Below are positions 5,350-57,801 of a stretch of DNA of 64,000 nt, in pieces (position 1 is the stretch's first letter; every line of letters begins with the position of its first letter). Below the pieces are notes generated by a model that was not told the origin of the DNA, made no database searches, and saw nothing but the letters and a program-made list of their open reading frames with translations. Source of the DNA: an uncultured bacterium (GTDB lineage Bacteria; Macinerneyibacteriota; Macinerneyibacteria; Macinerneyibacteriales; CAYRFE01). The stretch is taken from contig CAYRFE010000008.1 in the NCBI GenBank assembly GCA_964423645.1, positions 37,333-101,332 on the forward strand, written 5' to 3'. The position numbers were made by a program, and so were the translations under genes.

Positions 5350-6162
5350 ATGAGTATGCCTAAATCCCTTCGTACACAATTATACCGTATTATTTTTGAA
5401 TCAGACACGAAGGCCGGAAGGACATTTGATTTAGCATTGATCGTATGCATTTCTCTCAGTGTTTTAACCGTAATACTTGAAAGTATCCCTTCTTTTTCAA
5501 CACAGTTTCAAACAGAATTTTTATACGCAGAATGGTTCTGGGTCACGTTGTTCGGTATTGAATATATGCTCAGGATATACTCGGCAAAAAGCCCTCGTAC
5601 ATATATTTTCAGTTTTTATGGTCTTATCGATTTACTTGCCATACTTCCGTCCATTGCCGGCATATTCTTCGTCGGTATTCACATGTTTCTAGTTCTACGC
5701 GTTCTTCGTCTTTTTCGAATACTTCGTATTTTTAAACTTGGGAAATTTTTGTATCAAACGCGAATCATCGTTGAATCGCTTCGTGCAAGCAAAGAAAAAA
5801 TAGGCGTTTTTTTATTTGCAGTAATTCTATTGGTGCTTTGCATGGGCACAGTTATGTACCAGATCGAAGGCGCTATCAACGAAGGCTTCAACAGTATCCC
5901 CAAAAGTATTTATTGGTGTATCGTCACGTTGACAACGGTTGGCTATGGCGATATAGCTCCGATCACGACGCTCGGGCGTTTTTTAGCAAGTGCATTGATG
6001 ATCACCGGTTATGCGATCATCGCAGTTCCTACCGGGATTGTATCGGTAGAAATGGCAAAACAAGCGCAGAGCAACACAACATCCGTTATATGCTCGAAAT
6101 GCAAAAAAGCGAACCACGAACAAGGCGCAGTTTACTGCAACACCTGTGGTAAAAAACTCTAA
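5350..6162 (+). CDS. Voltage-gated potassium channel-like ion transporter with C-terminal zinc ribbon
   Basis: S4 segment LRVLRLFRILRIFKL, selectivity filter TVGYGD, C-terminal CxxC...CxxC. Confidence 0.95.
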   Translation: MSMPKSLRTQLYRIIFESDTKAGRTFDLALIVCISLSVLTVILESIPSFSTQFQTEFLYAEWFWVTLFGIEYMLRIYSAKSPRTYIFSFYGLIDLLAILPSIAGIFFVGIHMFLVLRVLRLFRILRIFKLGKFLYQTRIIVESLRASKEKIGVFLFAVILLVLCMGTVMYQIEGAINEGFNSIPKSIYWCIVTLTTVGYGDIAPITTLGRFLASALMITGYAIIAVPTGIVSVEMAKQAQSNTTSVICSKCKKANHEQGAVYCNTCGKKL

Positions 6163-6215: not shown

Positions 6216-6830
6216 TTAAAACATGAAGCCGACGGTCGCATAAAGTGTACGAAGCTGAACTGCATCACCTTCATTATCTTTCACAATGTCAGTCAGACCG
6301 TGATTGTAACGAGCATCAAATACAAGTTTGCTAACCTTAACTTGAACACCCATAATAGCACCCATTTCAGTTGAACTTGTGAAATCTTTCATATCCATAG
6401 ATTCAACTTCGTCGCCATCAACTTCTACTATAGCTTCAGCTGTCACAAGGAAACCCATACTTAGTCCGCCATATACCTTCATCATCGGTAAAAGGCTTAA
6501 TTTTGCCATTACCGGAACTTCGATATAATCCGCTTTCATAATATAGTCAACGTCACCCTCTTCATAGCTCCATGTGTATTTTTCGCCTTTTTGGGTATAC
6601 AGTACTTCCGCACCTAAAGAAAGCGGGCCAAGAGGAAGTTCCATCATGATACCACCGGTGAGGCCTAAACGAAACGGGTTACTTTCATCAACCCACGGCG
6701 GTTGAGTTTCTTCGCCATACACAATATTACCCATGGTCAATCCAGCCTTGATACCAAACTCAGGACCGATAGCGTTCACGGAAAACACAGCAACTAAAGC
6801 TACCAACAACACAACTAAAACTTTTTTCAT
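6216..6830 (-). CDS. Outer-membrane beta-barrel protein (PorT/OMP_b-brl_2-like), array copy 1
   Basis: Signal peptide, FGIKAG, YTQKG, LDYIEVP-type, DARYNxGLTDI motifs, terminal Phe. Confidence 0.85.
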   Translation of the reverse strand: MKKVLVVLLVALVAVFSVNAIGPEFGIKAGLTMGNIVYGEETQPPWVDESNPFRLGLTGGIMMELPLGPLSLGAEVLYTQKGEKYTWSYEEGDVDYIMKADYIEVPVMAKLSLLPMMKVYGGLSMGFLVTAEAIVEVDGDEVESMDMKDFTSSTEMGAIMGVQVKVSKLVFDARYNHGLTDIVKDNEGDAVQLRTLYATVGFMF

Positions 6831-6890
6831 ACAGTCACCTCCGTTTTTCATACATAAATATATACCCACATCGCAATATTTTCAAGGTAC

Positions 6891-6918
6891 AAAAAAAGGG
6901 GCGATCTCTCGCCCCTTT
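6891..6918 (-). terminator. Intrinsic terminator of porin copy 2 (repeated at ~7625-7652 for copy 3)
   Basis: AAAGGGGCGA-TCTC-TCGCCCCTTT with U-tract on the minus strand. Confidence 0.8.
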
Positions 6919-6940
6919 ACTTAAGTTTTTACAGAGTCAA

Positions 6941-7564
6941 TTAAAACATGAAGCCGACGGTAGCATAAAGAGTGCTTAGTTTTACTGCATCGCCTTCATT
7001 ATCTTTCATGATGTCAGTCAAACCCATGTTGTAGCGAGCATCAAATACGAGTTTGCTGATCTTTACTTGTGCTCCAAATATTGCACCCATTTCTGTTGAA
7101 TTCATGAAATCTTTCATGTCGGCAGATGCTACTTCTGTATCATTGATCTCAGAAACCATTTCAGCAGAAACTAAGAATCCAAAACTTACGCCACCATAAA
7201 ACTTTACCAATGGCAAAAGACTCAATTTAGCCATAACAGGAACTTCGATGTAATCGAGTTTCGCAGTTACTGATACAGGAACAGCTGCGAGATAATTATT
7301 CGCAAATGTATCGAACTTCTCACCTTTTTGAGTATAAAGAAGTTCAGCACCCAAAGACAACGGACCCATAGGCATTTCCATCATAATACCACCGGTTAAT
7401 CCTGCACGAAACATATCCGTGTCAAAATCTTGCGGTGCGTTATCATCACCATACACAATATTACCCATGGTCAATCCAGCCTTGATACCAAACTCAGGAC
7501 CGATAGCGTTCACGGAAAACACAGCAACTAAAGCCACCAACAACACAACCAACATTTTTTTCAT
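6941..7564 (-). CDS. Outer-membrane beta-barrel protein, array copy 2
   Basis: Paralog of copy 1 with the same conserved motifs and different loops. Confidence 0.85.
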   Translation of the reverse strand: MKKMLVVLLVALVAVFSVNAIGPEFGIKAGLTMGNIVYGDDNAPQDFDTDMFRAGLTGGIMMEMPMGPLSLGAELLYTQKGEKFDTFANNYLAAVPVSVTAKLDYIEVPVMAKLSLLPLVKFYGGVSFGFLVSAEMVSEINDTEVASADMKDFMNSTEMGAIFGAQVKISKLVFDARYNMGLTDIMKDNEGDAVKLSTLYATVGFMF

Positions 7565-7674
7565 ACAGTCACCTCCGTTTTTCATACATAAATATATACC
7601 CATATCGCAATATTTTCAAGGTACAAAAAAAGGGGCGATCTCTCGCCCCTTTGCGTAAGTATTTAGAGAGTCAA

Positions 7675-8283
7675 TTAAAACATGAAGCCGACGGTAGCAT
7701 ATAAAGTGCGCAAATTAACTGCATCGCCTTCATTATCTTTCATGATATCGGTAAGACCATGATTATAGCGCGCATCGAGTACGAGTTTGCTGATCTTTAC
7801 CTGCACACCCATGATAGCGCCCATTTCTGTTGTATTTATGAAATCTTTCAAGTCCATTGAGTCTACTTCTTCACCATCGATTTCAACAATTTCTTCAGCA
7901 GTTGTTAAAAAACCAAAACTTACTCCGCCGTATACTTTTACTATAGGAAGAAGATTCAATTTTGCCATTACAGGAACTTCGATATAATCGAGTTTGAGGT
8001 TTATCAATAAATCGCCCTCTTCTTCAAAAGTGTATTTCTCGCCCTTTTGAGTATACAACACTTCGGCGCCAAGTGAAATCGGACCCATAGGCATTTCCAT
8101 CATGATACCACCGGTCAAACCGAATTTCAATGGGTTGTCGAGACCTTCGAAATCACCATTCTCTTCACCCCATACTACATTACCCAATACTAATCCGCCC
8201 TTGATACCAAACTCAGGACCCATAGCATTCACAGAAAACACAGCAACTAAAGCCACCAACAACACAACCAACATTTTTTTCAT
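7675..8283 (-). CDS. Outer-membrane beta-barrel protein, array copy 3
   Basis: Paralog of copies 1 and 2. Confidence 0.85.
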   Translation of the reverse strand: MKKMLVVLLVALVAVFSVNAMGPEFGIKGGLVLGNVVWGEENGDFEGLDNPLKFGLTGGIMMEMPMGPISLGAEVLYTQKGEKYTFEEEGDLLINLKLDYIEVPVMAKLNLLPIVKVYGGVSFGFLTTAEEIVEIDGEEVDSMDLKDFINTTEMGAIMGVQVKISKLVLDARYNHGLTDIMKDNEGDAVNLRTLYATVGFMF

Positions 8284-8360
8284 ACGGTCACCTCCGTTTT
8301 TCATACACAAATATACACCCGTACGACCTATTTTTCAAGGCAAAAACAAAATTGATACAT

Positions 8361-32526: not shown

Positions 32527-32556
32527 TAAAAGGGGGAAAAGAAAATTTCCCCTTTT
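32527..32556 (+). terminator. Intrinsic terminator after the MFS gene
   Basis: AAAAGGGGGAAA...TTTCCCCTTTT. Confidence 0.65.
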
Positions 32557-32790: not shown

Positions 32791-32993
32791 AAAACCTTTG
32801 CAAAAATCAAAATTATCAGATTTTCTTTTTTCTCTAAAAAAAGGGGGGGGGGACGAAGTCGGGCGCATGATATGCGCCCGTTCCATTGAGAATTTTTGTA
32901 GGGGCAGAAGATCTTTCTGCCCACCTTCCGATTTCCACGGGAGGAGTTTGGGGTGGGCACAAAGTTTAAAACTGGTAGTTTTTCAAAGGTCTC
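32791..32993 (-). mobile_element. MITE copy D (~203 bp) with two REP-like hairpins
   Basis: ACCTTTGCAAAA ... TTTTTCAAAGGTCTC; internal sequence nearly the reverse complement of copy B. Confidence 0.82.
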
Positions 32994-33115: not shown

Positions 33116-34132
33116 CTATTCGATAAGTTTGTCTTCATCGCTGCCGCGGGAAATAAAGATCTTCCCTTCTTCCTGCAGACGACGGATGATATCAAGAATT
33201 TTTTGCTGCGCCTCTTCAACATTTTTCAGACGCACCGGCCCCATATAGTCCATATCTTCTTTAATCATGGTTGAAGCCCTATCAGACATATTAATAAAAA
33301 ACTTTTCTTTCAGCGGTTCTGATGCAGCTTTCAACGCAAGGGCAAGCTCTTTGTTATCAATTTCTGTAAGTATTGCTTGTATGGATTGATTATCTAAGGC
33401 CATAATATCCTCAAACACAAACATTAATTTTTTAATTTCTTCAGCTAACTCAGGGTCTTCACGCTCAAGACCGCTCATAATAGTTTTTTCAGTCGATTGG
33501 TCGGAGCGGTTCAACATTTCAGCAACCAGTTGAATACCGCCGGCAAAGCTCATCTCACCGCTGAATGAGCTGGTGAGTTGTGTTTCCAACGCATCCTGAA
33601 TTTCTTTAATCATATCCGGTGAAATCGTATCCATACGTGCGACACGCTTGATTACTTCGACGCGTATTTCCTCAGTTAACCCGCCAAGAATGGTCGCTGC
33701 TTGCTCAGGAGTCAAAAATGCAACGATCAATGCAATCGTTTGCGGTTGTTCATTTTGTATAAAATTCAGCAATTGCTGAGGATCAACATCTTTCAGCATT
33801 TCTAACGGATTTGATTCTATTGATCGCTGTAGTCTGTTGATAATCTCAATAGCTTTTTGCGGTCCTAATGCCTTTTCAAGCATCGTACGTGCATAATCGA
33901 TACCGCCTCGAGCAATATATTCTTGAGCCAAAGAAAGCTGATAAAACTCATTGAGAATCGGTTGCAATTTTTTGGGGTTAACCGAGCGAAGTTTTGAAAC
34001 TTCTACCGACACTTTTTCAACGGTACGCTCATCAAGATGTCGCAATATTTGCGCAGCGACATCATCACCCAGAGCAATGAGCATCATCGCAGCCTTGGTT
34101 ATCCCCTTTGTTACATCAGGCTTATCCGCCAT
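33116..34132 (-). CDS. fliG: Flagellar motor switch protein FliG
   Basis: KAAMMLIALG, GGIDYARTMLEKALG, EQPQTIALI, MFVFEDI, MGPVRLKNVEEAQQKI. Confidence 0.97.
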   Translation of the reverse strand: MADKPDVTKGITKAAMMLIALGDDVAAQILRHLDERTVEKVSVEVSKLRSVNPKKLQPILNEFYQLSLAQEYIARGGIDYARTMLEKALGPQKAIEIINRLQRSIESNPLEMLKDVDPQQLLNFIQNEQPQTIALIVAFLTPEQAATILGGLTEEIRVEVIKRVARMDTISPDMIKEIQDALETQLTSSFSGEMSFAGGIQLVAEMLNRSDQSTEKTIMSGLEREDPELAEEIKKLMFVFEDIMALDNQSIQAILTEIDNKELALALKAASEPLKEKFFINMSDRASTMIKEDMDYMGPVRLKNVEEAQQKILDIIRRLQEEGKIFISRGSDEDKLIE

Positions 34133-34141
34133 AATTCGCGT

Positions 34142-34510
34142 TTACGCTATCCCCAATATCTGATTGATTTTTTCTTTTAATGTTTGCGGAGTAAAGGGTT
34201 TTACAACATAACTGTTGACACCACACTTCATTGCTTCGATAATATCCTCTTTTACGCTTCGTGTAGTTACCATAAGAATAGGCATGCTTTTAAAGGTCGC
34301 ATCGCTACGCACTGCTTGCACAAACTCCAACCCATTCATCTCCGGCATATTCCAGTCGGTAATGACAAAATCTATTTTCACCGACGCCATTTTTGCAAGC
34401 GCCATTTTTCCATTCTCAGCCTCTTCAACATCCTCAAAGCCGGCTTTTTTCAATGTGTTCACCACAATACGCCGCATGGTAGAAGAATCATCAACGACAA
34501 GGATTTTCAT
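34142..34510 (-). CDS. cheY: Single-domain response regulator, CheY-like
   Basis: VVDDSSTMRRI, DWNMPEMNG, MVT, YVVKPF. Confidence 0.9.
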   Translation of the reverse strand: MKILVVDDSSTMRRIVVNTLKKAGFEDVEEAENGKMALAKMASVKIDFVITDWNMPEMNGLEFVQAVRSDATFKSMPILMVTTRSVKEDIIEAMKCGVNSYVVKPFTPQTLKEKINQILGIA

Positions 34511-34526
34511 GCGCAGCCTCCTTTAA

Positions 34527-34898
34527 TTACAATTTCTTGTATTTATCCAACACCATGTCAAAAACTTTTTTCCGCAGATCCATATCTATAATCTGATACA
34601 CTTCCATAAGATGCCCTTTCTTGGTTGACCTGGACGGCATCTCAATTTTCAACATTTTTTCGTTCTCATCATCAGCAACAATCCGAATATCCTTCAAAAC
34701 GATGGATTTATTAAATTTAACGGCAGCAAATGCTTTGATACGGCCTTTTTCTAATGTTTTGGTGACGACAATATCATCGTTCGCAAGTACTAGTTCAGGA
34801 TTTTGAGTAATACGAGTCTTCTTTGTTTTCCCCTGTATATAGAGCACCAGGAGAAGAGCATTTACAACAACAGAAGATAATAACGCCACCAACATCAT
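34527..34898 (-). CDS. SpoVG-like protein with N-terminal hydrophobic anchor
   Basis: GRIKAFAAVKF...LKDIRIV...EMPSR...LRKKVFDMVLDKY aligns by eye with SpoVG; the first ~20 aa are hydrophobic. Confidence 0.75.
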   Translation of the reverse strand: MMLVALLSSVVVNALLLVLYIQGKTKKTRITQNPELVLANDDIVVTKTLEKGRIKAFAAVKFNKSIVLKDIRIVADDENEKMLKIEMPSRSTKKGHLMEVYQIIDMDLRKKVFDMVLDKYKKL

Positions 34899-34906
34899 AT
34901 ATGGTT

Positions 34907-34935
34907 ATTATATCGTAGTGTCAATGAAATGTCAA
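34907..34935 (-). promoter_or_regulatory. Perfect consensus promoter TTGACA-N17-TATAAT, 8 nt before the ATG
   Basis: Direct reading; no SD present. Confidence 0.8.
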
Positions 34936-34961
34936 TATACCATTTTTGACAACAACAACTT

Positions 34962-35756
34962 TTATACCAGTGCTACTAAATAGTAAAAAACAGGCGCGCT
35001 GAAAATCATTGAATCGAACCGGTCAAATATTCCTCCATGCCCGATAATGATAGTACTCGAATCTTTCACATTCGCATATCTCTTAATCAACGACTCTGCA
35101 AGATCACCCATTTGTACGGTAAGCGCAAAAACCATCATCCCGATTATTGCGTACGTGACCGAAATATGCAAATAAGTATGAAACAATGCACATAAACCGG
35201 TGGGTACCGCAATTCCCCCGATAAACCCCTGAATTGATTTTTTCGGAGACACCGCAATCAGCCCTCGATGTTTTTTACCGAGCCACATTCCGAATGCATA
35301 TGCTGCTGTATCGATCGTCCAAACCGAAATAAAAAATACAGGGAGCCACACCGCACCGCGTACAAGATTCATTTTTGCCACAACTAGATAATGCGAGAAA
35401 AATATAATATATATATTTGCAAATACGGCAATAAGCATTCTTCGCAGATCGCGTTCTCGTTCATCATTATACATTATAACTTCAAACGATAAAATTGCGA
35501 TAAATAGCACTACCATGACCAACGGATGAATGTGTCCGTTCCATAACGTGATAAGCATGACATAGGCAGCAAACAGAACAGTTAAACCAAAATACATCAC
35601 TCGTTTCACTGCGAACATCCGATATATTTCAAACACCGCCCCACACGCGATCACAAAGGTAAACACCGTGATCCATACGGGATTTTTCGTATACCCGATA
35701 AACAATATCACGGGAATAAAAACAACAGCTACGATAAGACGGTGTATCAGATTCAT
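34962..35756 (-). CDS. cdsA: Phosphatidate cytidylyltransferase
   Basis: DTAAYAFG, SPKKS, GDLAESLIKR...KDS...GHGGIFDRFDS. Confidence 0.96.
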   Translation of the reverse strand: MNLIHRLIVAVVFIPVILFIGYTKNPVWITVFTFVIACGAVFEIYRMFAVKRVMYFGLTVLFAAYVMLITLWNGHIHPLVMVVLFIAILSFEVIMYNDERERDLRRMLIAVFANIYIIFFSHYLVVAKMNLVRGAVWLPVFFISVWTIDTAAYAFGMWLGKKHRGLIAVSPKKSIQGFIGGIAVPTGLCALFHTYLHISVTYAIIGMMVFALTVQMGDLAESLIKRYANVKDSSTIIIGHGGIFDRFDSMIFSAPVFYYLVALV

Positions 35757-40408: not shown

Positions 40409-41272
40409 ATGCCGGATTTATCAGCTATAATGAGTAAAGTTCAGGAATTACCCACACTTCCCGATGTCAGTATGAAAATCTTAAAACTTGTCAATGAAAG
40501 TTCAACGTCTACTCAATCGCTTGCAAAAATAATTGAACGAGATCCCGCATTGGCAACGAAGATCTTAAAATTCATTAACTCCGCATATTTTTCACTTTCA
40601 AGGAAAATAACCAATATACAACAAGCGGTTACCTACCTTGGATTTCATCACATATCACAGTTGGTCATATCAGTTACAATTTTCAGTAAAATGGATTTTT
40701 CAAACGGAGTATTTTCCATGGAGAATTTCTGGATTCACAGCATGTTTGTGGCTGATTACAGCAAAATCCTTGCGATCGTGTCAAAAAAAACAAACCCGGA
40801 TGATGCCTACACCGCCGGGCTGTTGCATGATATCGGAAAAATGTTTTTGATAAAATATTTGACTCCGAATATGGAGGATATTCTTTCAACGGCATTTACA
40901 AATAAATCATTTTTATATGACGAAGAATATGCAAAAATGAAAATAGACCACAATATGACCGGAGAATGGTTATCGAAAAACTGGAAACTTCCCGGATATA
41001 TTTGTGATGCATGTCACTATCATAATATGCCGTTTGAAAAACGAAAGCATGTCTCAATGCTTGATCCGGGACTCGTTAATTGCGTCTCGTTAGCAAATAA
41101 ATTAATGAATATAAAACTGAAAGGCTATAGCGGAAGCTATGGAGAATACACGATCGAAAAGGCAGAACTTGATGCGTTGGGTGTAAGCGTCACGGATCTT
41201 GTACAATACGAATCGGGTATGGAAGCTCGCCTTCAAAGCGCAAAAGAGATGTTACATATTATCAAGGAATAA
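40409..41272 (+). CDS. HDOD domain-containing protein
   Basis: LPTLP, DPALATKILKFINSAYF, FWIHS, AGLLHDIGK, DHNMTG..L..NWKLP. Confidence 0.93.
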   Translation: MPDLSAIMSKVQELPTLPDVSMKILKLVNESSTSTQSLAKIIERDPALATKILKFINSAYFSLSRKITNIQQAVTYLGFHHISQLVISVTIFSKMDFSNGVFSMENFWIHSMFVADYSKILAIVSKKTNPDDAYTAGLLHDIGKMFLIKYLTPNMEDILSTAFTNKSFLYDEEYAKMKIDHNMTGEWLSKNWKLPGYICDACHYHNMPFEKRKHVSMLDPGLVNCVSLANKLMNIKLKGYSGSYGEYTIEKAELDALGVSVTDLVQYESGMEARLQSAKEMLHIIKE

Positions 41273-42979: not shown

Positions 42980-44122
42980 ATGGAAAATCGTAAAATTTTG
43001 TATATTGAAGATGATTCGTTGATCATGGAACTCTTTCGCGCCTCATTTGAACAATTTCTTCCTCATACTACTTTTTACGGTGCATCAACCGGGAAAGAAG
43101 GATTAGAAATTGCCCGTACAATTCACCCTCATCTGATAATGCTTGACATGGGGCTCCCCGATATGGCGGGTATTGATATTTTGATCGAACTAAAAAAAGA
43201 TCCTCACTTTACGGCTACACCCGTTATCGTCGTAACCGGCAGTACTGACTCTGACGATAAAATGGCGGCTCTGGAAAACGGAGCGATTGATTTCTTGAGT
43301 AAGCCCTGCAATATTCGAGAACTTATTGCTCGGATCACACTGCATTTACGGCAGATCGACTACATACAAAAAATAGAAGAAAAAAACGCCCAATTGGAAG
43401 AGGATCTTGAAGCGGGAAGAAAAATTCAATTTAAACTGTTGCCCCCTAAGCAAAGAGAGATCGGGCCGTTCACCTTCAACGGTTTTCTCTTCCCCTCGAT
43501 GCACTTAAGCGGAGATTTTTTAGATTATTTTCCAATTGATGAACGTTATACCGGTTTTTATATTGCAGATGTTTCAGGACACGGCGTATCATCTGCATTT
43601 GTAACGGTCTTTTTGAAAAGCTTTGTACAAAATGCCCTTGAGCAGTACCATGGAGGCGTCGAGAAAGATATTATTAATCCCGATAAATTGTGTTCAAAAC
43701 TTAACAGGAATCTGCTGGATGAACGTCTCGGTAAATATATGACCGCTTTTTATGCTGTTATGGATTCCCAGACAAACACATTGACCTACACCATAGCAGG
43801 TCAATATCCGTTTCCTATTATCACTCACATGGGTTCTACTCGATATCTTTCCGGCACGAATGTTCCATTAGGCTTGTTCCCGCAATCAGAATATAGTGCC
43901 GAAACTATTTCATTGGATGATATACATGAAATAATTCTCATATCTGACGGTGTTCTCGAGATACTTCCTCACCCTACTTTACGTGAAAAACAAAGTTTTT
44001 TATTGAACATCACACAAAAGACTGATATAACCATTGATAGCTTGGTTGAAGCATTCGGCTTACAAGAAAGAACCTCGTTACCGGATGATATAACGTTTTT
44101 ACTTGTCCAAAGGAGGAAATGA
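42980..44122 (+). CDS. Response regulator receiver fused to SpoIIE/PP2C phosphatase (RssB/RsbU-like)
   Basis: Receiver (EDD, LDMGLPD, KP), coiled coil, ADVSGHG, SDG, DDIT. Confidence 0.92.
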   Translation: MENRKILYIEDDSLIMELFRASFEQFLPHTTFYGASTGKEGLEIARTIHPHLIMLDMGLPDMAGIDILIELKKDPHFTATPVIVVTGSTDSDDKMAALENGAIDFLSKPCNIRELIARITLHLRQIDYIQKIEEKNAQLEEDLEAGRKIQFKLLPPKQREIGPFTFNGFLFPSMHLSGDFLDYFPIDERYTGFYIADVSGHGVSSAFVTVFLKSFVQNALEQYHGGVEKDIINPDKLCSKLNRNLLDERLGKYMTAFYAVMDSQTNTLTYTIAGQYPFPIITHMGSTRYLSGTNVPLGLFPQSEYSAETISLDDIHEIILISDGVLEILPHPTLREKQSFLLNITQKTDITIDSLVEAFGLQERTSLPDDITFLLVQRRK

Positions 44123-44617
44123 ATGAATCCCGGAAAAATTGTATATGCGCAACATAACAGTATGTATATTATTAAAATGATTGGCACAATAAAATACACA
44201 CTGAGTTCTGATTTCGATGTTTTTATTGAGAAAATATTTCACTCTAAAAATTTTTCTAGCATTGTCATTGATATGAGCGAGACAGAATACATCGACAGCA
44301 CCAATTTGGGATTACTCGCAAAGATTGCCAACTATATGTTTGAGCATTTTCATCAAAAGGTCACTATTATCTCTACCAATGATGATGTCTGCGCAATCCT
44401 GCATAGCGTAGGCTTTACCAAAATTTTTTCGATTATTGAGAAACCGTTAAGCTGTGCCGTGAAAATGAATGATCTTGAACCAACTCAAGCCGGAAGCGAA
44501 TATCTTGGAAAAGTATTACTCGAGGCTCATGAATTTCTGGCCGGAATTGATGCTCATAATAACGAGGTTTTTAAAAACGTGATCGATGTACTCAAAAAAA
44601 ATCAAACCGGTGTATAA
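44123..44617 (+). CDS. STAS-domain anti-anti-sigma-like protein (RssC-like)
   Basis: IDMSETEYIDSTNLGLLAKI with a phosphorylatable Ser; C-terminal EAHEFL..ID..N. Confidence 0.85.
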   Translation: MNPGKIVYAQHNSMYIIKMIGTIKYTLSSDFDVFIEKIFHSKNFSSIVIDMSETEYIDSTNLGLLAKIANYMFEHFHQKVTIISTNDDVCAILHSVGFTKIFSIIEKPLSCAVKMNDLEPTQAGSEYLGKVLLEAHEFLAGIDAHNNEVFKNVIDVLKKNQTGV

Positions 44618-44644
44618 ATCAATCTCATGAACACAGGAGAATAT

Positions 44645-45121
44645 ATGAAAAATATTATCAGTATCATATGCTTTGTTATACTGACACACACATTGTGTGC
44701 GCAATCGGTCAACAAAGGAAATCTTATTTTTATTCACACTGAACGTGATACCAACACGCTGAAAAGTAATGATACGCTCGCGACCGATATGTTTTACATC
44801 ATTGATGGAGATGAATCAAAAGGCGAAGTTATCCTTACATTCAATCTTACCGAAAATTACAAAGAAGCATATCTGATTGTAAATATCCCGGACAGAGAAT
44901 GGGCAGAAACCAATGACGGATTTGATATATTCTTAAAGGACAAAAAAGTAGCGTCGATCTCATCCGCCGCACGAAACAGTTGGCTTGAGATTAAACTCGA
45001 CCATACCCTGTTACCGGCTTCAGGAACGGTTGAATTTACACTACGATCAATAAAAAATGACGGATTATACATCTGTTCCAAGAAAAGCGGGAAGGGCGCC
45101 GTTTTAAAAGTCGTTCAATAA
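44645..45121 (+). CDS. Exported beta-rich hypothetical protein
   Basis: Signal peptide ending LCA-Q; SD ACAGGAG. Confidence 0.6.
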   Translation: MKNIISIICFVILTHTLCAQSVNKGNLIFIHTERDTNTLKSNDTLATDMFYIIDGDESKGEVILTFNLTENYKEAYLIVNIPDREWAETNDGFDIFLKDKKVASISSAARNSWLEIKLDHTLLPASGTVEFTLRSIKNDGLYICSKKSGKGAVLKVVQ

Positions 45122-54047: not shown

Positions 54048-54668
54048 TCATCCCTTCTTAATATATACCACATGTCTTTTTGAGGTCTTTGATCGACGAA
54101 AGCTGAATAAACTTTCATCACATATGGTACAGCGAGGATTAACAGTGATTTTTTCTCGCAGAACACCTGCTTTTTCAGCCAAAAATATATTCATCCCAAT
54201 GAGATCGGCATACAAGCCTGCTTCGCGTTGAATAAAAAACCGATGAAGTTCTGATTGAAACCGGTCAATAATGTCCTTTCCGATTTCATAACAACACGAA
54301 CGAGCAGATGGTGAAAAATAGACAGAGAGACGTGAAGGGTCTATCCCATGCGAAAAAAAAAGAGCGATACCTTCAGACAGTATCGCAGATGCAGTGCCCT
54401 TCCAGCCCGCATGTAGCACCATGACAAGTTCTTGATTATCGTCCCATAGAACAATGCCGTTGCAATCTGCAGTTCGAACGGTCAGACACACATTGGCTCT
54501 ATCGGTAAACAGTCCGTCCCCGTCGCCATAAAATCCCGGACTTGGGGCATAACAAATATGATTTCCATGAATTTGATGACAATATGCCGCATCGGGAAAA
54601 TGTGCTGCGACATCTTCCCGCTCCGGATAACTGTTCGTCGTCCAACCGAAATACGGCTTATTCACCAT
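54048..54668 (-). CDS. pgeF: Peptidoglycan editing factor PgeF (YfiH family)
   Basis: QIHG, DGLFT, TADCNGI, HAGWKGT, CCYEIG, CT.C...LFSFRR. Confidence 0.92.
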   Translation of the reverse strand: MVNKPYFGWTTNSYPEREDVAAHFPDAAYCHQIHGNHICYAPSPGFYGDGDGLFTDRANVCLTVRTADCNGIVLWDDNQELVMVLHAGWKGTASAILSEGIALFFSHGIDPSRLSVYFSPSARSCCYEIGKDIIDRFQSELHRFFIQREAGLYADLIGMNIFLAEKAGVLREKITVNPRCTICDESLFSFRRSKTSKRHVVYIKKG

Positions 54669-57600
54669 ACTTCGGCCAGCAACACGTCTTATATTTCTTT
54701 CCGCTCCCGCACGGGCACGGATCATTACGTCCAACCTTAACATTCTTTTTGATCGGTTGACGCTTAATTCCTTTACCGTCCCCCGAATTTCCCGCAGTAG
54801 TATAAATGAGATCTTTTGTATCATCCTGTTGTTGTTCAGCTTTTTCAATGACCAAATGAAACAGATCTCGTATTACTTGTTTGCGTATCATCGCCTCAAG
54901 TTCATGGAACATTTCATACGATTCTTTTTTATACTCAAACAAAGGATCTTTCTGTGCATACGCACGAAGATTAATACCTTCCATAAGATTATCGATCGCA
55001 TATAAATGCTCCCGCCAGTTCCTATCGATCGCCGATAACATGATGATACGTTGTACATCACGCATGATATCAGCACCGACCTGTCGATCGCGTGATTGCG
55101 CAAGTTTTTCGACTTCTTGATTGACATAGGCGTTCAGTGCGTCACGATCAGCACACTTCGTTAACGAATCAATATCAATAAAAAGACCGAAGTATTCAAG
55201 TGCAAAAGTTTTTAAGCCTTCCAAATCCCAATCCATCGGACGAAGATCCTGCGGACAGAACATGTCAACGCCTTCTTCGACAACCTCAGCGATCATGTCG
55301 GTCAATTGCTCTTCCAAAAGATCGTTTGATGCGATATGCACTTCTTCGCCTTCTGTCTCGATCATAGAGTGTTTTTCAAGAAGTGGAAACAATACACGTT
55401 CAAAACCTTTTTCGAATGCATTCGTGCGAAACGCGTCATATGATGCAAATCGAGTTTTATCGGTCGTCGCTGCAATAAATTCGCTGAGATAAACGGCTTC
55501 AAGAACTGAATTACGACGATCATAGATCGAGAAACGTTGTTTATTCATTACATCGTCATATTCAAGTGTGTGTTTACGAATCTGGAAATGATGATGTTCA
55601 ACACGTTTTTGCGCATTCTCGATTTGACGTGAAATAAGCGGATGCTGAATCGCTTCCCCGTCTTCCATTTTAAGACGATCAAGTATCCCTATTATTCTGT
55701 CAGAACCGAAAAGACGCATGAGGTTGTCTTCAAGTGAGACAAAGAACCGTGATGCACCCGGGTCACCCTGTCGACCGGAACGACCTCGCAACTGACGATC
55801 GATGCGTCGACTTTCATGACGCTCTGTACCGATTACATATAATCCGCACGGAACGTCGCGTTTACATTCACGCACATCAACGCCGGCTTCTACGGCAACA
55901 CCTTCTTCAGATGCCACCAATGCACACGATACACAGCGCTTCACGCCGGCTCCGAGTTTAATATCGGTTCCGCGACCGGCCATATTGGTCGCAATAGTGA
56001 TCGATCCCTTTTGCCCTGCTCGTGCGACGATCTCGGCTTCTTTTTGATGATTCTTCGCATTTAAGACCTCAGCGATCAGTCCTTTACGAGTAAGCATACG
56101 TGCTAACAACTCAGAATCTTCGACCGATACTGTGCCGACCAGTACAGGTTGCCCTCGTTGATTTACACGATGGATCTCATCAATGACCGCATTGAATTTT
56201 TCTTTTTTGGTTTTATAGATCACATCATCGTAATCCATACGACGAACAGGTCTGTTAGTTGGTACAACAAGTACATCCATCTTATAGATTTCTTTGAATT
56301 CGCCTGCCTCAGTTACGGCAGTTCCCGTCATACCTGATATCTTTTTATACATTCTGAAAAAGTTTTGCAACGTAATCGTCGCAAACGTCTGGGTATCGCC
56401 TTCGATCTGAACATTCTCTTTCGCCTCAAGCGCATTATGCAACCCGTCAGAAAAGCGACGTCCCGGCATCAAACGTCCGGTAAATTCATCAACGATCAAA
56501 ACCTTATTCTCCTGCACCACATAATCAACATCTTTCTCGAAGAGCGAATATGCCCGCAAAAGCTGTGATAACGCATGAAGTATTTCATTCTTTTCGCTGT
56601 AATCCCGTTGGACTTTACGTTTGAGATTCTCACGTTCTGTCTCATCCTGGGTCTCTTCTAAAATACGTGCGAATTCATCACCGATATCGGTCAATTCAAA
56701 TAACTTCGGATTTTCGGGTGATAAAAGTTTGCGCCCGTTTTCTGCCAAATCGGCAACATGTCGTTTTTCATCGATCACATAATACAACTCTTCTTCAAGC
56801 TCATGCACGCGTTTGTCACGAATATATACCAACTCCATGTCATTCATAAGACGCTGGATCTTTGTTTCCTGACGTAATTTCATCAACTGCTTGTGCGTGG
56901 GAAGACCTTTATAGGCGATAAGAAATTTTATGGCCGCAGTGTCAAAATCACCTGACTCGTATGCTTCTTGTCCTTCACGAACAAGTTTTGATACCAATTC
57001 TCGTTGATGATCAAGTAATCGACGTACTTTCGGATTTAACTCGCGAAAATAACGATTGCTTTGCGATTGAACCGGTCCCGAAATGATAAGCGGTGTACGG
57101 GCTTCATCGATGAGGATCGAGTCGACTTCATCGATAATTGCAAATTCACGATATTTCTGCACTTGCTCTCGCAGATTCCCCACCATATTATCTCTCAAAT
57201 AATCAAAACCGAATTCGGAATTCGTACCATATACAATATCATTCTGATACACACTTTTTCGTGCTTCGGTATCCATACCGCCCTGCAAACAACCGACGGT
57301 CACTCCCAACGTTGTATATAAAAGCCCCATCCACTGACTATCACGAAGTGCCAAATAATCATTGACGGTAACAACATGTACTTGCCCGTTCAGTGCATTG
57401 AGATAGGCAGGCATGGTCGCAACCAGTGTTTTTCCTTCACCGGTCGCCATTTCTGATATTTTCCCGCTGTGGATGACTATTCCGCCGATAAGCTGTACAT
57501 CAAACGGCACCATTTCCCACGGCATTTGATGACCGGTCACATTCGCGAGAATTTTATTCTCTTTCAAGTAATATGCAACACGCTTTACAAGACCGAATGC

Positions 57601-57801
57601 CTCGGGTAACAATTCGTCCGTTGTTTCGCCTTTACGTAAACGTGCGCGGAACTCCTCGGTTTTTCGTTTGAAATCGTCGGGTGTGTGCACTTCTTGCAAA
57701 AACCGTTCGAAATTTTGATTGATCCCGTCAACATGCGAAAACAATTTCTTTACTGTTCGTTCTTGATAACTGCCGAAAATCTTTGTTAAAAAACCTAACA
57801 T
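54658..57801 (-). CDS. secA: Protein translocase subunit SecA
   Basis: MATGEGKTL, DEVDSILIDEARTPLIISG, ATNMAGRGTDI, GTERHESRRIDRQLRGRSGRQGDPG, SEC-C GRNDPCPCGSGKKYKTCC. Confidence 0.99.
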   Translation of the reverse strand: MLGFLTKIFGSYQERTVKKLFSHVDGINQNFERFLQEVHTPDDFKRKTEEFRARLRKGETTDELLPEAFGLVKRVAYYLKENKILANVTGHQMPWEMVPFDVQLIGGIVIHSGKISEMATGEGKTLVATMPAYLNALNGQVHVVTVNDYLALRDSQWMGLLYTTLGVTVGCLQGGMDTEARKSVYQNDIVYGTNSEFGFDYLRDNMVGNLREQVQKYREFAIIDEVDSILIDEARTPLIISGPVQSQSNRYFRELNPKVRRLLDHQRELVSKLVREGQEAYESGDFDTAAIKFLIAYKGLPTHKQLMKLRQETKIQRLMNDMELVYIRDKRVHELEEELYYVIDEKRHVADLAENGRKLLSPENPKLFELTDIGDEFARILEETQDETERENLKRKVQRDYSEKNEILHALSQLLRAYSLFEKDVDYVVQENKVLIVDEFTGRLMPGRRFSDGLHNALEAKENVQIEGDTQTFATITLQNFFRMYKKISGMTGTAVTEAGEFKEIYKMDVLVVPTNRPVRRMDYDDVIYKTKKEKFNAVIDEIHRVNQRGQPVLVGTVSVEDSELLARMLTRKGLIAEVLNAKNHQKEAEIVARAGQKGSITIATNMAGRGTDIKLGAGVKRCVSCALVASEEGVAVEAGVDVRECKRDVPCGLYVIGTERHESRRIDRQLRGRSGRQGDPGASRFFVSLEDNLMRLFGSDRIIGILDRLKMEDGEAIQHPLISRQIENAQKRVEHHHFQIRKHTLEYDDVMNKQRFSIYDRRNSVLEAVYLSEFIAATTDKTRFASYDAFRTNAFEKGFERVLFPLLEKHSMIETEGEEVHIASNDLLEEQLTDMIAEVVEEGVDMFCPQDLRPMDWDLEGLKTFALEYFGLFIDIDSLTKCADRDALNAYVNQEVEKLAQSRDRQVGADIMRDVQRIIMLSAIDRNWREHLYAIDNLMEGINLRAYAQKDPLFEYKKESYEMFHELEAMIRKQVIRDLFHLVIEKAEQQQDDTKDLIYTTAGNSGDGKGIKRQPIKKNVKVGRNDPCPCGSGKKYKTCCWPKYGE

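Follow-up and report, generated by a model that had tools for sequence, protein, structure and literature searches.

A SpoVG-like protein with a predicted membrane anchor is encoded after cdsA and apparently shares a transcription unit with cheY and fliG in an uncultured bacterium

SpoVG proteins (Pfam family PF04026) are soluble DNA- and RNA-binding regulators of Firmicutes and Borrelia; they are widespread, poorly understood and known only in soluble form. Regulators that carry a nucleic-acid-binding fold at the membrane are exemplified by ToxR and CadC, both of which are bitopic. With respect to the flagellar switch, spirochaetes have a stand-alone FliG paralog, FliG1, alongside the FliG2 of the flgB operon. 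Jutras et al. reported that DNA binding by the Staphylococcus aureus SpoVG requires both K50 and R51; the corresponding doublet of B. burgdorferi is R53-R54 (PMC3688583). Here, we analyzed a stretch of 64,000 nucleotides (nt) from an uncultured bacterium (contig CAYRFE010000008.1, hereafter the window), in which a gene encoding a SpoVG-like protein with a predicted N-terminal transmembrane helix (TM-SpoVG) lies between cdsA and a cheY-fliG pair. An original prediction, made from the letters of the sequence, had described TM-SpoVG, cheY and fliG as a three-gene unit placed directly after cdsA, and the coordinates bear this out: the three genes are on the minus strand, with gaps of 16 nt (TM-SpoVG/cheY) and 9 nt (cheY/fliG), and a 63-nt spacer separates the SpoVG-like open reading frame (ORF) from cdsA, which is the final gene of a rplM-rpsI-rpsB-tsf-pyrH-frr-uppS-cdsA run. 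Two things of different age, an anchored SpoVG protein and a canonical cheY-fliG pair, would share one transcription unit, a reading towards which the evidence, in our judgement, tips slightly. The genes and the parts of TM-SpoVG are as follows.

34962-35756, minus strand: cdsA, phosphatidate cytidylyltransferase (PF01148, 174.5 bits).
34527-34898, minus strand: TM-SpoVG-like gene, 123 amino acids (aa), assigned by Pfam SpoVG, AlphaFold2 (AF2)/Foldseek, hydropathy and the ratio of nonsynonymous to synonymous substitution rates (dN/dS).
About 34830-34898, minus strand: predicted anchor, residues 1-23 of TM-SpoVG, uncharged and hydrophobic (hydropathy and charge).
Residues 24-41 of TM-SpoVG, minus strand: K/R-rich linker (charge).
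34533-34775, minus strand: diverged SpoVG domain, residues 42-122 (PF04026).
34142-34510, minus strand: cheY, single-domain chemotaxis response regulator, 122 aa (PF00072, NF007901, PDB matches).
33116-34132, minus strand: fliG, rotor/switch protein with N, M and C domains, 338 aa (TIGR00207, FliG_N/M/C).

The assignment of the first protein of the unit to SpoVG was sound by homology and fold, and only partly so by the signature residues of SpoVG. Residues 42-122 matched model positions 5-82 of the 82 positions of PF04026 with 53.8 bits (cut-off 29.6), and the score against the NCBIfam equivalog 'septation regulator SpoVG' (NF009749) was 47.9 bits, which is below its cut-off of 108. A profile of the TM-SpoVG family recovered three solved SpoVGs of the PDB with E values from 3e-10 to 4e-8. 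The AF2 model of TM-SpoVG (predicted local distance difference test, pLDDT, 70.8) placed strands at residues 43-47, 54-62, 66-75 and 83-86 and helices at 96-103 and 106-122, and when it was used for a Foldseek search of the PDB the top 10 matches were all SpoVG, with a probability of 1.0 and template-modeling scores (TM-scores, target) of 0.56-0.70. The beta-sheet, the C-terminal helix and the P-S/A-R motif are kept. As had been noticed from the sequence, the canonical DIAHP motif is replaced by EVYQI, and the alignment to the PDB SpoVGs confirmed this and extended it to the whole family, where the motif reads (E/D)(V/I)Y(Q/K)(F/I). In addition, the T-P-D-G-E segment of SpoVG is T-K/N-K/R-G-H in the TM-SpoVG family. 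The position equivalent to K50 is occupied by an invariant R90, that equivalent to R51 by S, A, I or V across the family, and the basic loop of the domain is strengthened (R90, K93 and K94). The description that suits TM-SpoVG best is that of a new subfamily of the SpoVG fold with a membrane anchor. The titles and abstracts listed in literature searches on SpoVG included none about an anchored form, and the anchored subfamily appears to be both undescribed and rare. A phmmer search of 1.84 billion representatives returned three 50%-identity clusters with the anchored architecture (P0001, P0004 and P0005), and the other matches were ordinary SpoVGs. Some of the latter have apparent N-terminal extensions (P0012, P0016, P0024 and others) and were considered as family members, but they were rejected as ordinary SpoVGs with miscalled starts, because the DIAHP motif is present and an M(E/K)ITDV start lies inside them. 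After the profile search and a metagenome scan the family set comprised 15 distinct sequences.

The N-terminal hydrophobic helix that had been read from the sequence is confirmed as an uncharged segment of residues 1-23, with a mean Kyte-Doolittle hydropathy of 2.63 over 19 residues, and the AF2 model has a helix at residues 2-32. All 15 homologues begin with about 20 uncharged hydrophobic residues (mean Kyte-Doolittle hydropathy 1.6-3.3), and the segment that follows has a net charge of 0 to +6. The original prediction had allowed that the true start might lie past the helix. A start codon at such a place was rejected: no in-frame ATG, GTG or TTG is present from V18 to the first strand of the SpoVG domain, the helix is found in all homologues, and a start later than that is untenable because half of the SpoVG domain would be lost. 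Against a relative with 83% identity the dN/dS of TM-SpoVG was 0.07, which is like that of the adjoining housekeeping genes. The absence of a later start, the three clusters with the anchored architecture, the 15 of 15 homologues and the low dN/dS together argue that the helix is part of the protein, and on these grounds we regard the membrane anchor of the SpoVG-like protein as genuine. A cleavable signal peptide that would export the domain was also considered and was rejected by inference, given the lack of a basic n-region, the uncharged stretch of about 20 residues and the basic cluster after the helix. Basic residues that flank a helix mark its cytoplasmic side (the positive-inside rule), and by this rule the basic stretch after the helix predicts an N-out/C-in signal anchor with almost no periplasmic part, so that the SpoVG domain would be cytoplasmic.

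In order to place the gene, the loci and contigs of relatives, labeled L001-L037, were compared with the window. In every locus with upstream sequence, cdsA lies upstream of TM-SpoVG, either directly or via one DHO_dh-family gene, and where enough upstream sequence is available frr-uppS-cdsA precedes TM-SpoVG, together with rplM-rpsI-rpsB-tsf-pyrH where the contig reaches that far. The downstream genes vary. cheY and fliG follow TM-SpoVG only in the window, L001, L003/L004, L013 and L032-L037, the last of which are contigs with the trio that were recovered via the exact CheY sequence; the identity of TM-SpoVG to that of the window is 83% in L001, 62% in L003/L004 and 45-53% in L013. In L007, L010-L012 and L017-L023 genes for an OKR_DC_1 decarboxylase and an NhaC antiporter are found downstream of TM-SpoVG, and in L005, L006 and L019 ligA; these loci represent at least three other lineages, and their 6-8 kb of sequence gave no match to CheY or FliG. 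Conservation of the trio in relatives, which the original prediction had looked to, therefore stood within the sub-lineage of the window, where the gene order and the translational set-up (leaderless first gene, strong cheY Shine-Dalgarno (SD) sequence, SD-less fliG) are kept down to 44-53% TM-SpoVG identity, and failed in the other lineages, which carry OKR_DC_1/NhaC or ligA. In L001 the OKR_DC_1-NhaC pair is located beyond cheY-fliG-transglutaminase-MFS (major facilitator superfamily), which indicates that cheY-fliG marks an insertion or a deletion at this spot. Furthermore, the invariant residues of the SpoVG domain are identical in lineages with and without cheY-fliG. Since cdsA is constant upstream and the downstream genes differ among lineages, the stable partner of the TM-SpoVG family is, judging by gene order, cdsA and not the switch genes.

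Two observations were made on the flanking genes themselves. In the Mcinerneyibacterium-like branch the DHO_dh-family gene lies between cdsA and TM-SpoVG (L005, 7006-8390; L014, 677-2100; L016, 276-1651), and its stop codon abuts or overlaps the start of TM-SpoVG, which implies translational coupling of the two. In the near-identical L010 (3990-5105) and L011 (3983-6134) the OKR_DC_1 gene is truncated or uncalled, whereas L012 and L007 have it intact; the gene may be a pseudogene there, or the assembly may be faulty.

The fixed position after cdsA also fits a different proposal, i.e., that the SpoVG-like domain no longer binds nucleic acids and serves as a membrane-surface adaptor for lipid or envelope biogenesis, with anionic lipid head groups, CdsA, UppS or the DHO_dh-family protein as its possible partner. 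The linkage to cdsA or the DHO_dh gene is universal and includes the overlapping stop and start codons with the latter, of the two residues that DNA binding requires one is missing, as is DIAHP, and the basic loop and the basic linker adjoin the membrane. However, a place next to a housekeeping cluster says little about function, and in the clade of the window TM-SpoVG has its own promoter and is not coupled to cdsA. We know of no lipid-binding SpoVG, and nothing of the kind was found in the literature searches on SpoVG. We consider this proposal unlikely.

The second and third genes of the unit encode canonical switch proteins. CheY matched PF00072 with 108 bits, and its best NCBIfam model, by a wide margin, was NF007901 with 150.5 bits, which is below the cut-off of 189; its best PDB matches were all CheY, led by 3gwg (E=1.8e-43) with an end-to-end alignment, and residues D7-D8, D52 (in DWNMP), T82, Y101 and K104 aligned to 3gwg and 3h1g. 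FliG scored 404.5 bits against TIGR00207 (cut-off 226.7), 131.7, 112.6 and 154.1 bits against FliG_N, FliG_M and FliG_C, and 253 bits against the PDB chain 1lkv. The torque-helix residues K268, R285, E292/D293 and R301, the linker glycines G198-G199 and R163 are all conserved, and the FliM-binding motif is EQPQ, not EHPQ, at a position (H) that also varies in reference FliGs (Thermincola ENPQ). Among the matches listed, FliG was 51-56% identical to the FliGs of Firmicutes, and the closest FliG outside the clade is encoded in a flgB-flgC-fliE-fliF-fliG-fliH-fliI operon. When the window was compared with L001, the identity of CheY was 100%, of FliG 97%, of Frr 92%, of PyrH 82% and of CdsA 73%. 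Synonymous sites were saturated in all genes (proportion of synonymous differences, pS, 0.63-0.83; synonymous divergence, dS, of cheY about 1.35), and the dN/dS was 0.005 for cheY and 0.015 for fliG, the latter below those of Frr and PyrH. Recent horizontal transfer was considered as a source of the 97-100% identity and rejected, because near-identical proteins with saturated dS point to very strong purifying selection.

Within the window and its extensions fliG is neither beside fliF nor in a flagellar cluster. The observation in the original prediction that no other flagellar gene lies nearby held for a wider region: apart from cheY and fliG, no flagellar or chemotaxis gene was found among the 59 large ORFs of the window, which encode ExbB/ExbD/TonB, efflux, outer-membrane, RecA, SecA and similar proteins, and no flagellar gene was found in the approximately 7 kb and 4.5 kb past its ends on the same or near-identical contigs. 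This isolation is unusual, the nearest relatives outside the clade being in fliE-fliF-fliG-fliH operons, and it could be explained if the fliG of the window were an extra, specialized paralog with a polar, regulatory or non-flagellar role, and a second fliG were present beside fliF elsewhere in the genome. The EQPQ motif might be read in the same way. On the other hand, the H position of this motif also varies in bona fide single-copy FliGs (Thermincola ENPQ), the score of FliG is far above the equivalog cut-off (404 versus 227 bits), and the protein has its full length: the FliF-binding N domain, the GG linker and every charge of the torque helix are there. Its dN/dS of 0.015, below Frr and PyrH, is the opposite of what a relaxed or neofunctionalized paralog would show, and in the FliG search the identity drops from 79% (clade members) to 56% or less, with no close paralog surfacing. 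Because FliG is full length, canonical and strongly constrained, it has the signature of an indispensable part of the motor and not that of a relaxed or neofunctionalized copy. Most likely it works as a rotor protein of the flagellum, its gene having been parted from fliF, and is not a diverged paralog. The idea of an extra paralog, which the original prediction had raised as a non-flagellar FliG role, thus loses favor, and we think it improbable. Its analogy with the spirochaetal FliG paralog has no basis either, since the closest FliGs outside the clade are from Firmicutes. A spirochaete origin was rejected as well: the FliG matches give it no support, and the one named source of the family is Ca. 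Mcinerneyibacterium aminivorans, from a candidate phylum (a literature search on 'Mcinerneyibacterium' found no paper). Among the proteins of the window are beta-barrel outer-membrane, TolC-like and TonB/ExbBD proteins, and the family belongs to a clade of uncultured diderm bacteria.

The expression signals of the unit are the following.

34946-34951, minus strand: TGTCAA half-site, which with the -35 box forms TGTCAA-N10-TTGACA (34951-34930), probably by chance.
34907-34935, minus strand: sigma-70-type promoter, TTGACA (34935-34930), N17, TATAAT (34912-34907), 12/12 match.
34924-34919, minus strand: second TTGACA inside the promoter spacer, read from the sequence.
34517-34524, minus strand: SD sequence AAAGGAGG of cheY, within the 16-nt gap, read directly.
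32533-32552, both strands: bidirectional terminator-like hairpin, with T-runs on either strand, where the fliG unit and the MFS gene converge.

The leaderless-type promoter that had been described upstream of TM-SpoVG was borne out in each of its parts. It is the single perfect TTGACA-N17-TATAAT match within the window (7 matches with at most one mismatch were observed, and 1.0 was expected), the TATAAT box ends 8 nt from the ATG, and no SD sequence is present. The genome uses GGAGG-type SDs, and an SD was detected at 30 of the 59 ORF starts of the window, that of cheY included. A -35/-10 pair located 6-9 nt from the start codon is kept in L001, L004, L013, L010 and L007, i.e., in lineages with and without cheY-fliG, and its conservation in six lineages, counting that of the window, places the promoter above chance. 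In the sister lineages L017-L022 TM-SpoVG has a GAAAGGA SD instead, and at the loci of the DHO_dh type its start overlaps the stop codon of the preceding gene. Because the close -10 box recurs and the genome otherwise uses strong SDs, a leaderless or near-leaderless mRNA of TM-SpoVG, with its predicted start, is well supported. In addition, the ion-channel gene (Ion_trans) at 5350-6162 (plus strand) has a TATACT that ends 6 nt before its ATG and no SD, and it may be a second leaderless gene of this genome.

The original prediction had also pointed to the TGTCAA-N10-TTGACA palindrome and to the second TTGACA, and both are present. A role of the palindrome as an operator was rejected, given that its TGTCAA half is missing from the closest relatives, L001 (83% identical) and L004 (62% identical), and that at least one match with at most one mismatch was observed in 23 of 100 shuffled sequences. 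Since relatives lack it and it is no rarer than chance would have it, we regard it as fortuitous.

The SD AAAGGAGG of cheY is kept in L001, L004, L013, L034 and L036. Across the trio loci fliG is SD-less and starts 6-9 nt past the stop codon of cheY (9 nt in the window), and because an SD-less fliG lies so close behind a cheY with a strong SD, the arrangement suggests that the translation of fliG is coupled to that of cheY and that the output of FliG is below that of CheY. A terminator scan reported no terminator-like site in the 16-nt or the 9-nt gap of the trio. The first such site 3′ of fliG is the hairpin at 32533-32552, and the sole other minus-strand site of the unit is internal to the coding sequence of fliG (33779-33766). 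The spacer between fliG and the MFS gene is 590 bp long and gene-free in the window; in relatives it holds a transglutaminase-like gene, in some cases together with one for an M32 peptidase, and no remnants of the L001/L036 transglutaminase or M32 peptidase genes were found in the 590 bp of the window. The same spacer contains a run of 10 G (32843-32852) beside a perfect hairpin, GGGCGCAT-GAT-ATGCGCCC (32861-32879). This region (32843-32879) had no Rfam match, and the Rfam and tRNA scans of the whole window returned none.

Taken together, we propose that TM-SpoVG would be a small bitopic inner-membrane protein, in which a signal-anchor helix and a basic linker hold a domain of the SpoVG fold at the cytoplasmic face of the inner membrane, and that its gene would belong, as a core gene specific to the lineage, to the tsf-pyrH-frr-uppS-cdsA cluster. 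In several lineages it would be transcribed from its own strong promoter, with the mRNA starting at the AUG or within about 2 nt of it. At the membrane surface the domain may still bind an anionic ligand, which would most likely be RNA or DNA, the ligands of soluble SpoVG, or conceivably lipid head groups, and its job would probably be related to the membrane or envelope, or be otherwise independent of flagella. The cheY-fliG pair would have come to lie between TM-SpoVG and the ancestral downstream genes by insertion or by retention, and it would be expressed by read-through from the TM-SpoVG promoter, with cheY translated from its strong SD and fliG, at a lower level, via coupling to cheY.

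Several points weigh against this proposal. The AF2 model is of only moderate confidence (pLDDT 70.8). The order, spacing and translation signals of the trio are kept through saturated dS and down to about 45-53% TM-SpoVG identity, so that selection for co-expression, and hence a functional link, is possible. The loss of flagella in the lineages that lack the pair could have removed cheY-fliG from them and left TM-SpoVG orphaned. Finally, the loss of SpoVG abolishes soft-agar motility in Listeria (PMC4959528), which is a precedent for a link between SpoVG and motility. A link of TM-SpoVG to the motor is possible, and it is not the best reading of the locus.

The strongest version of such a link is that TM-SpoVG, CheY and FliG form one functional module, in which TM-SpoVG would act as a brake, a clutch or a positioning factor of the C-ring or FliG ring, or as a binder of flagellar mRNA or DNA at the motor. 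The tight operon architecture, conserved across at least four species-level lineages with saturated dS, the predicted location of the TM-SpoVG domain at the cytoplasmic face of the membrane, which is also that of FliG, and the effect of SpoVG on Listeria motility (PMC4959528) are in line with it. Nevertheless, at least three further lineages have TM-SpoVG, with unchanged invariant residues, but not the cheY-fliG pair beside it, cdsA is the constant companion of the gene, TM-SpoVG evolves at the pace of housekeeping membrane enzymes and not at that of the ultra-conserved cheY and fliG, and no other flagellar gene is located nearby in the window and its extensions. The original prediction had proposed a module of this kind, which would join the membrane, a nucleic-acid-binding fold and the motor; the anchored, undescribed SpoVG variant and the trio of the sub-lineage survive from it, and the constancy of cdsA and the lineage-restricted occurrence of cheY-fliG speak against the rest, so that we give the module little credence. 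The extra-paralog and the adaptor proposals partly overlap with the module and with the reading that we favor, of two components of different age.

A more specific form, which we judge to be quite improbable, is that TM-SpoVG is a flagellar accessory factor, membrane-tethered and binding RNA/DNA or FliG, that is made from a leaderless mRNA, in a fixed ratio with CheY and with the only FliG of the cell. If this were true, TM-SpoVG would tie rotor assembly or switching to a control that is exerted locally, at the membrane, on mRNA or the chromosome, and the lineages without the pair downstream of TM-SpoVG would simply keep cheY-fliG elsewhere.

Other genes of the window deserve a brief description. 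Three tandem paralogous OMP_b-brl_2 beta-barrel genes lie at 6216-8310 (minus strand; 217, 220 and 211 aa), and two of them have identical 25-nt upstream sequences, which points to a recent tandem duplication; the third copy is reduced to 172 aa in L026, a near-identical contig, where an extra 51-aa ORF lies alongside. The longest ORFs of the Cu-oxidase_4 (YfiH-like) gene (54048-54848) and of secA (54658-57801, minus strand) overlap by about 190 nt, and the true start of the former probably lies downstream of its TTG. A gene for a HDOD-domain protein adjoins rplM at 40409-41272 (plus strand), a position kept in L034, and a partner-switching set at 42980-45121 (plus strand) encodes a response-regulator-SpoIIE phosphatase, a STAS protein and a 164-aa ORF without a Pfam match. 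These signaling genes could bear on motility or on sigma-factor control.

A tethered subfamily with altered ligand-contact residues would show what the SpoVG fold is capable of at a membrane surface, and it would provide a new handle on the mechanism of SpoVG. A cheY-fliG pair that is detached from fliF and lies behind a leaderless gene, with an apparent, conserved coupling, is an unusual way to express a rotor protein. It is relevant to the question of how deep-branching uncultured bacteria maintain the order of their flagellar genes and the stoichiometry of the products. We regard this arrangement as unusual but not revolutionary. The practical weight of these observations is limited by the uncultured state of the organisms, the very small size of the family and the inferred nature of its function.

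When compared with the described systems, TM-SpoVG is closest to SpoVG itself (PDB 2i9x, 2i9z and 2ia9), with which it shares the fold, sequence homology, the P-S-R segment, the basic residue equivalent to K50 and the C-terminal helix. It differs in the added N-terminal anchor and basic linker, in the position of its gene after cdsA, in the lack of the R51 equivalent and of DIAHP, and in its C-terminal helix, which is conserved in the family (it ends in KKYKxL) and hypervariable in SpoVG. ToxR and CadC are an analogy of mechanism only, in that a nucleic-acid-binding fold would be tethered by a single helix at the cytoplasmic face of the inner membrane; in TM-SpoVG, however, the predicted anchor is N-terminal with 0-3 residues outside the membrane, no periplasmic sensor domain is present, and the fold, which may bind DNA or RNA, is that of SpoVG and not a winged helix. 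The promoter region resembles those of leaderless bacterial mRNAs in having a consensus -10 box 6-9 nt before the AUG and no SD in a genome that uses SDs, and it departs from them in that the same gene has a GAAAGGA SD, or overlaps the preceding gene, in sister lineages. In relation to the canonical CheY/FliG-FliM-FliN switch, the pocket and the Y/K switch residues of CheY and the FliM- and stator-binding residues of FliG are those expected, whereas cheY lies directly 5′ of fliG with an apparent translational coupling, outside any che/fla cluster and behind a non-flagellar gene. Finally, this fliG shares with that of the spirochaetal FliG1 its placement away from fliF and the remaining flagellar genes, but it differs from it in encoding a protein that is canonical in sequence and very strongly constrained.

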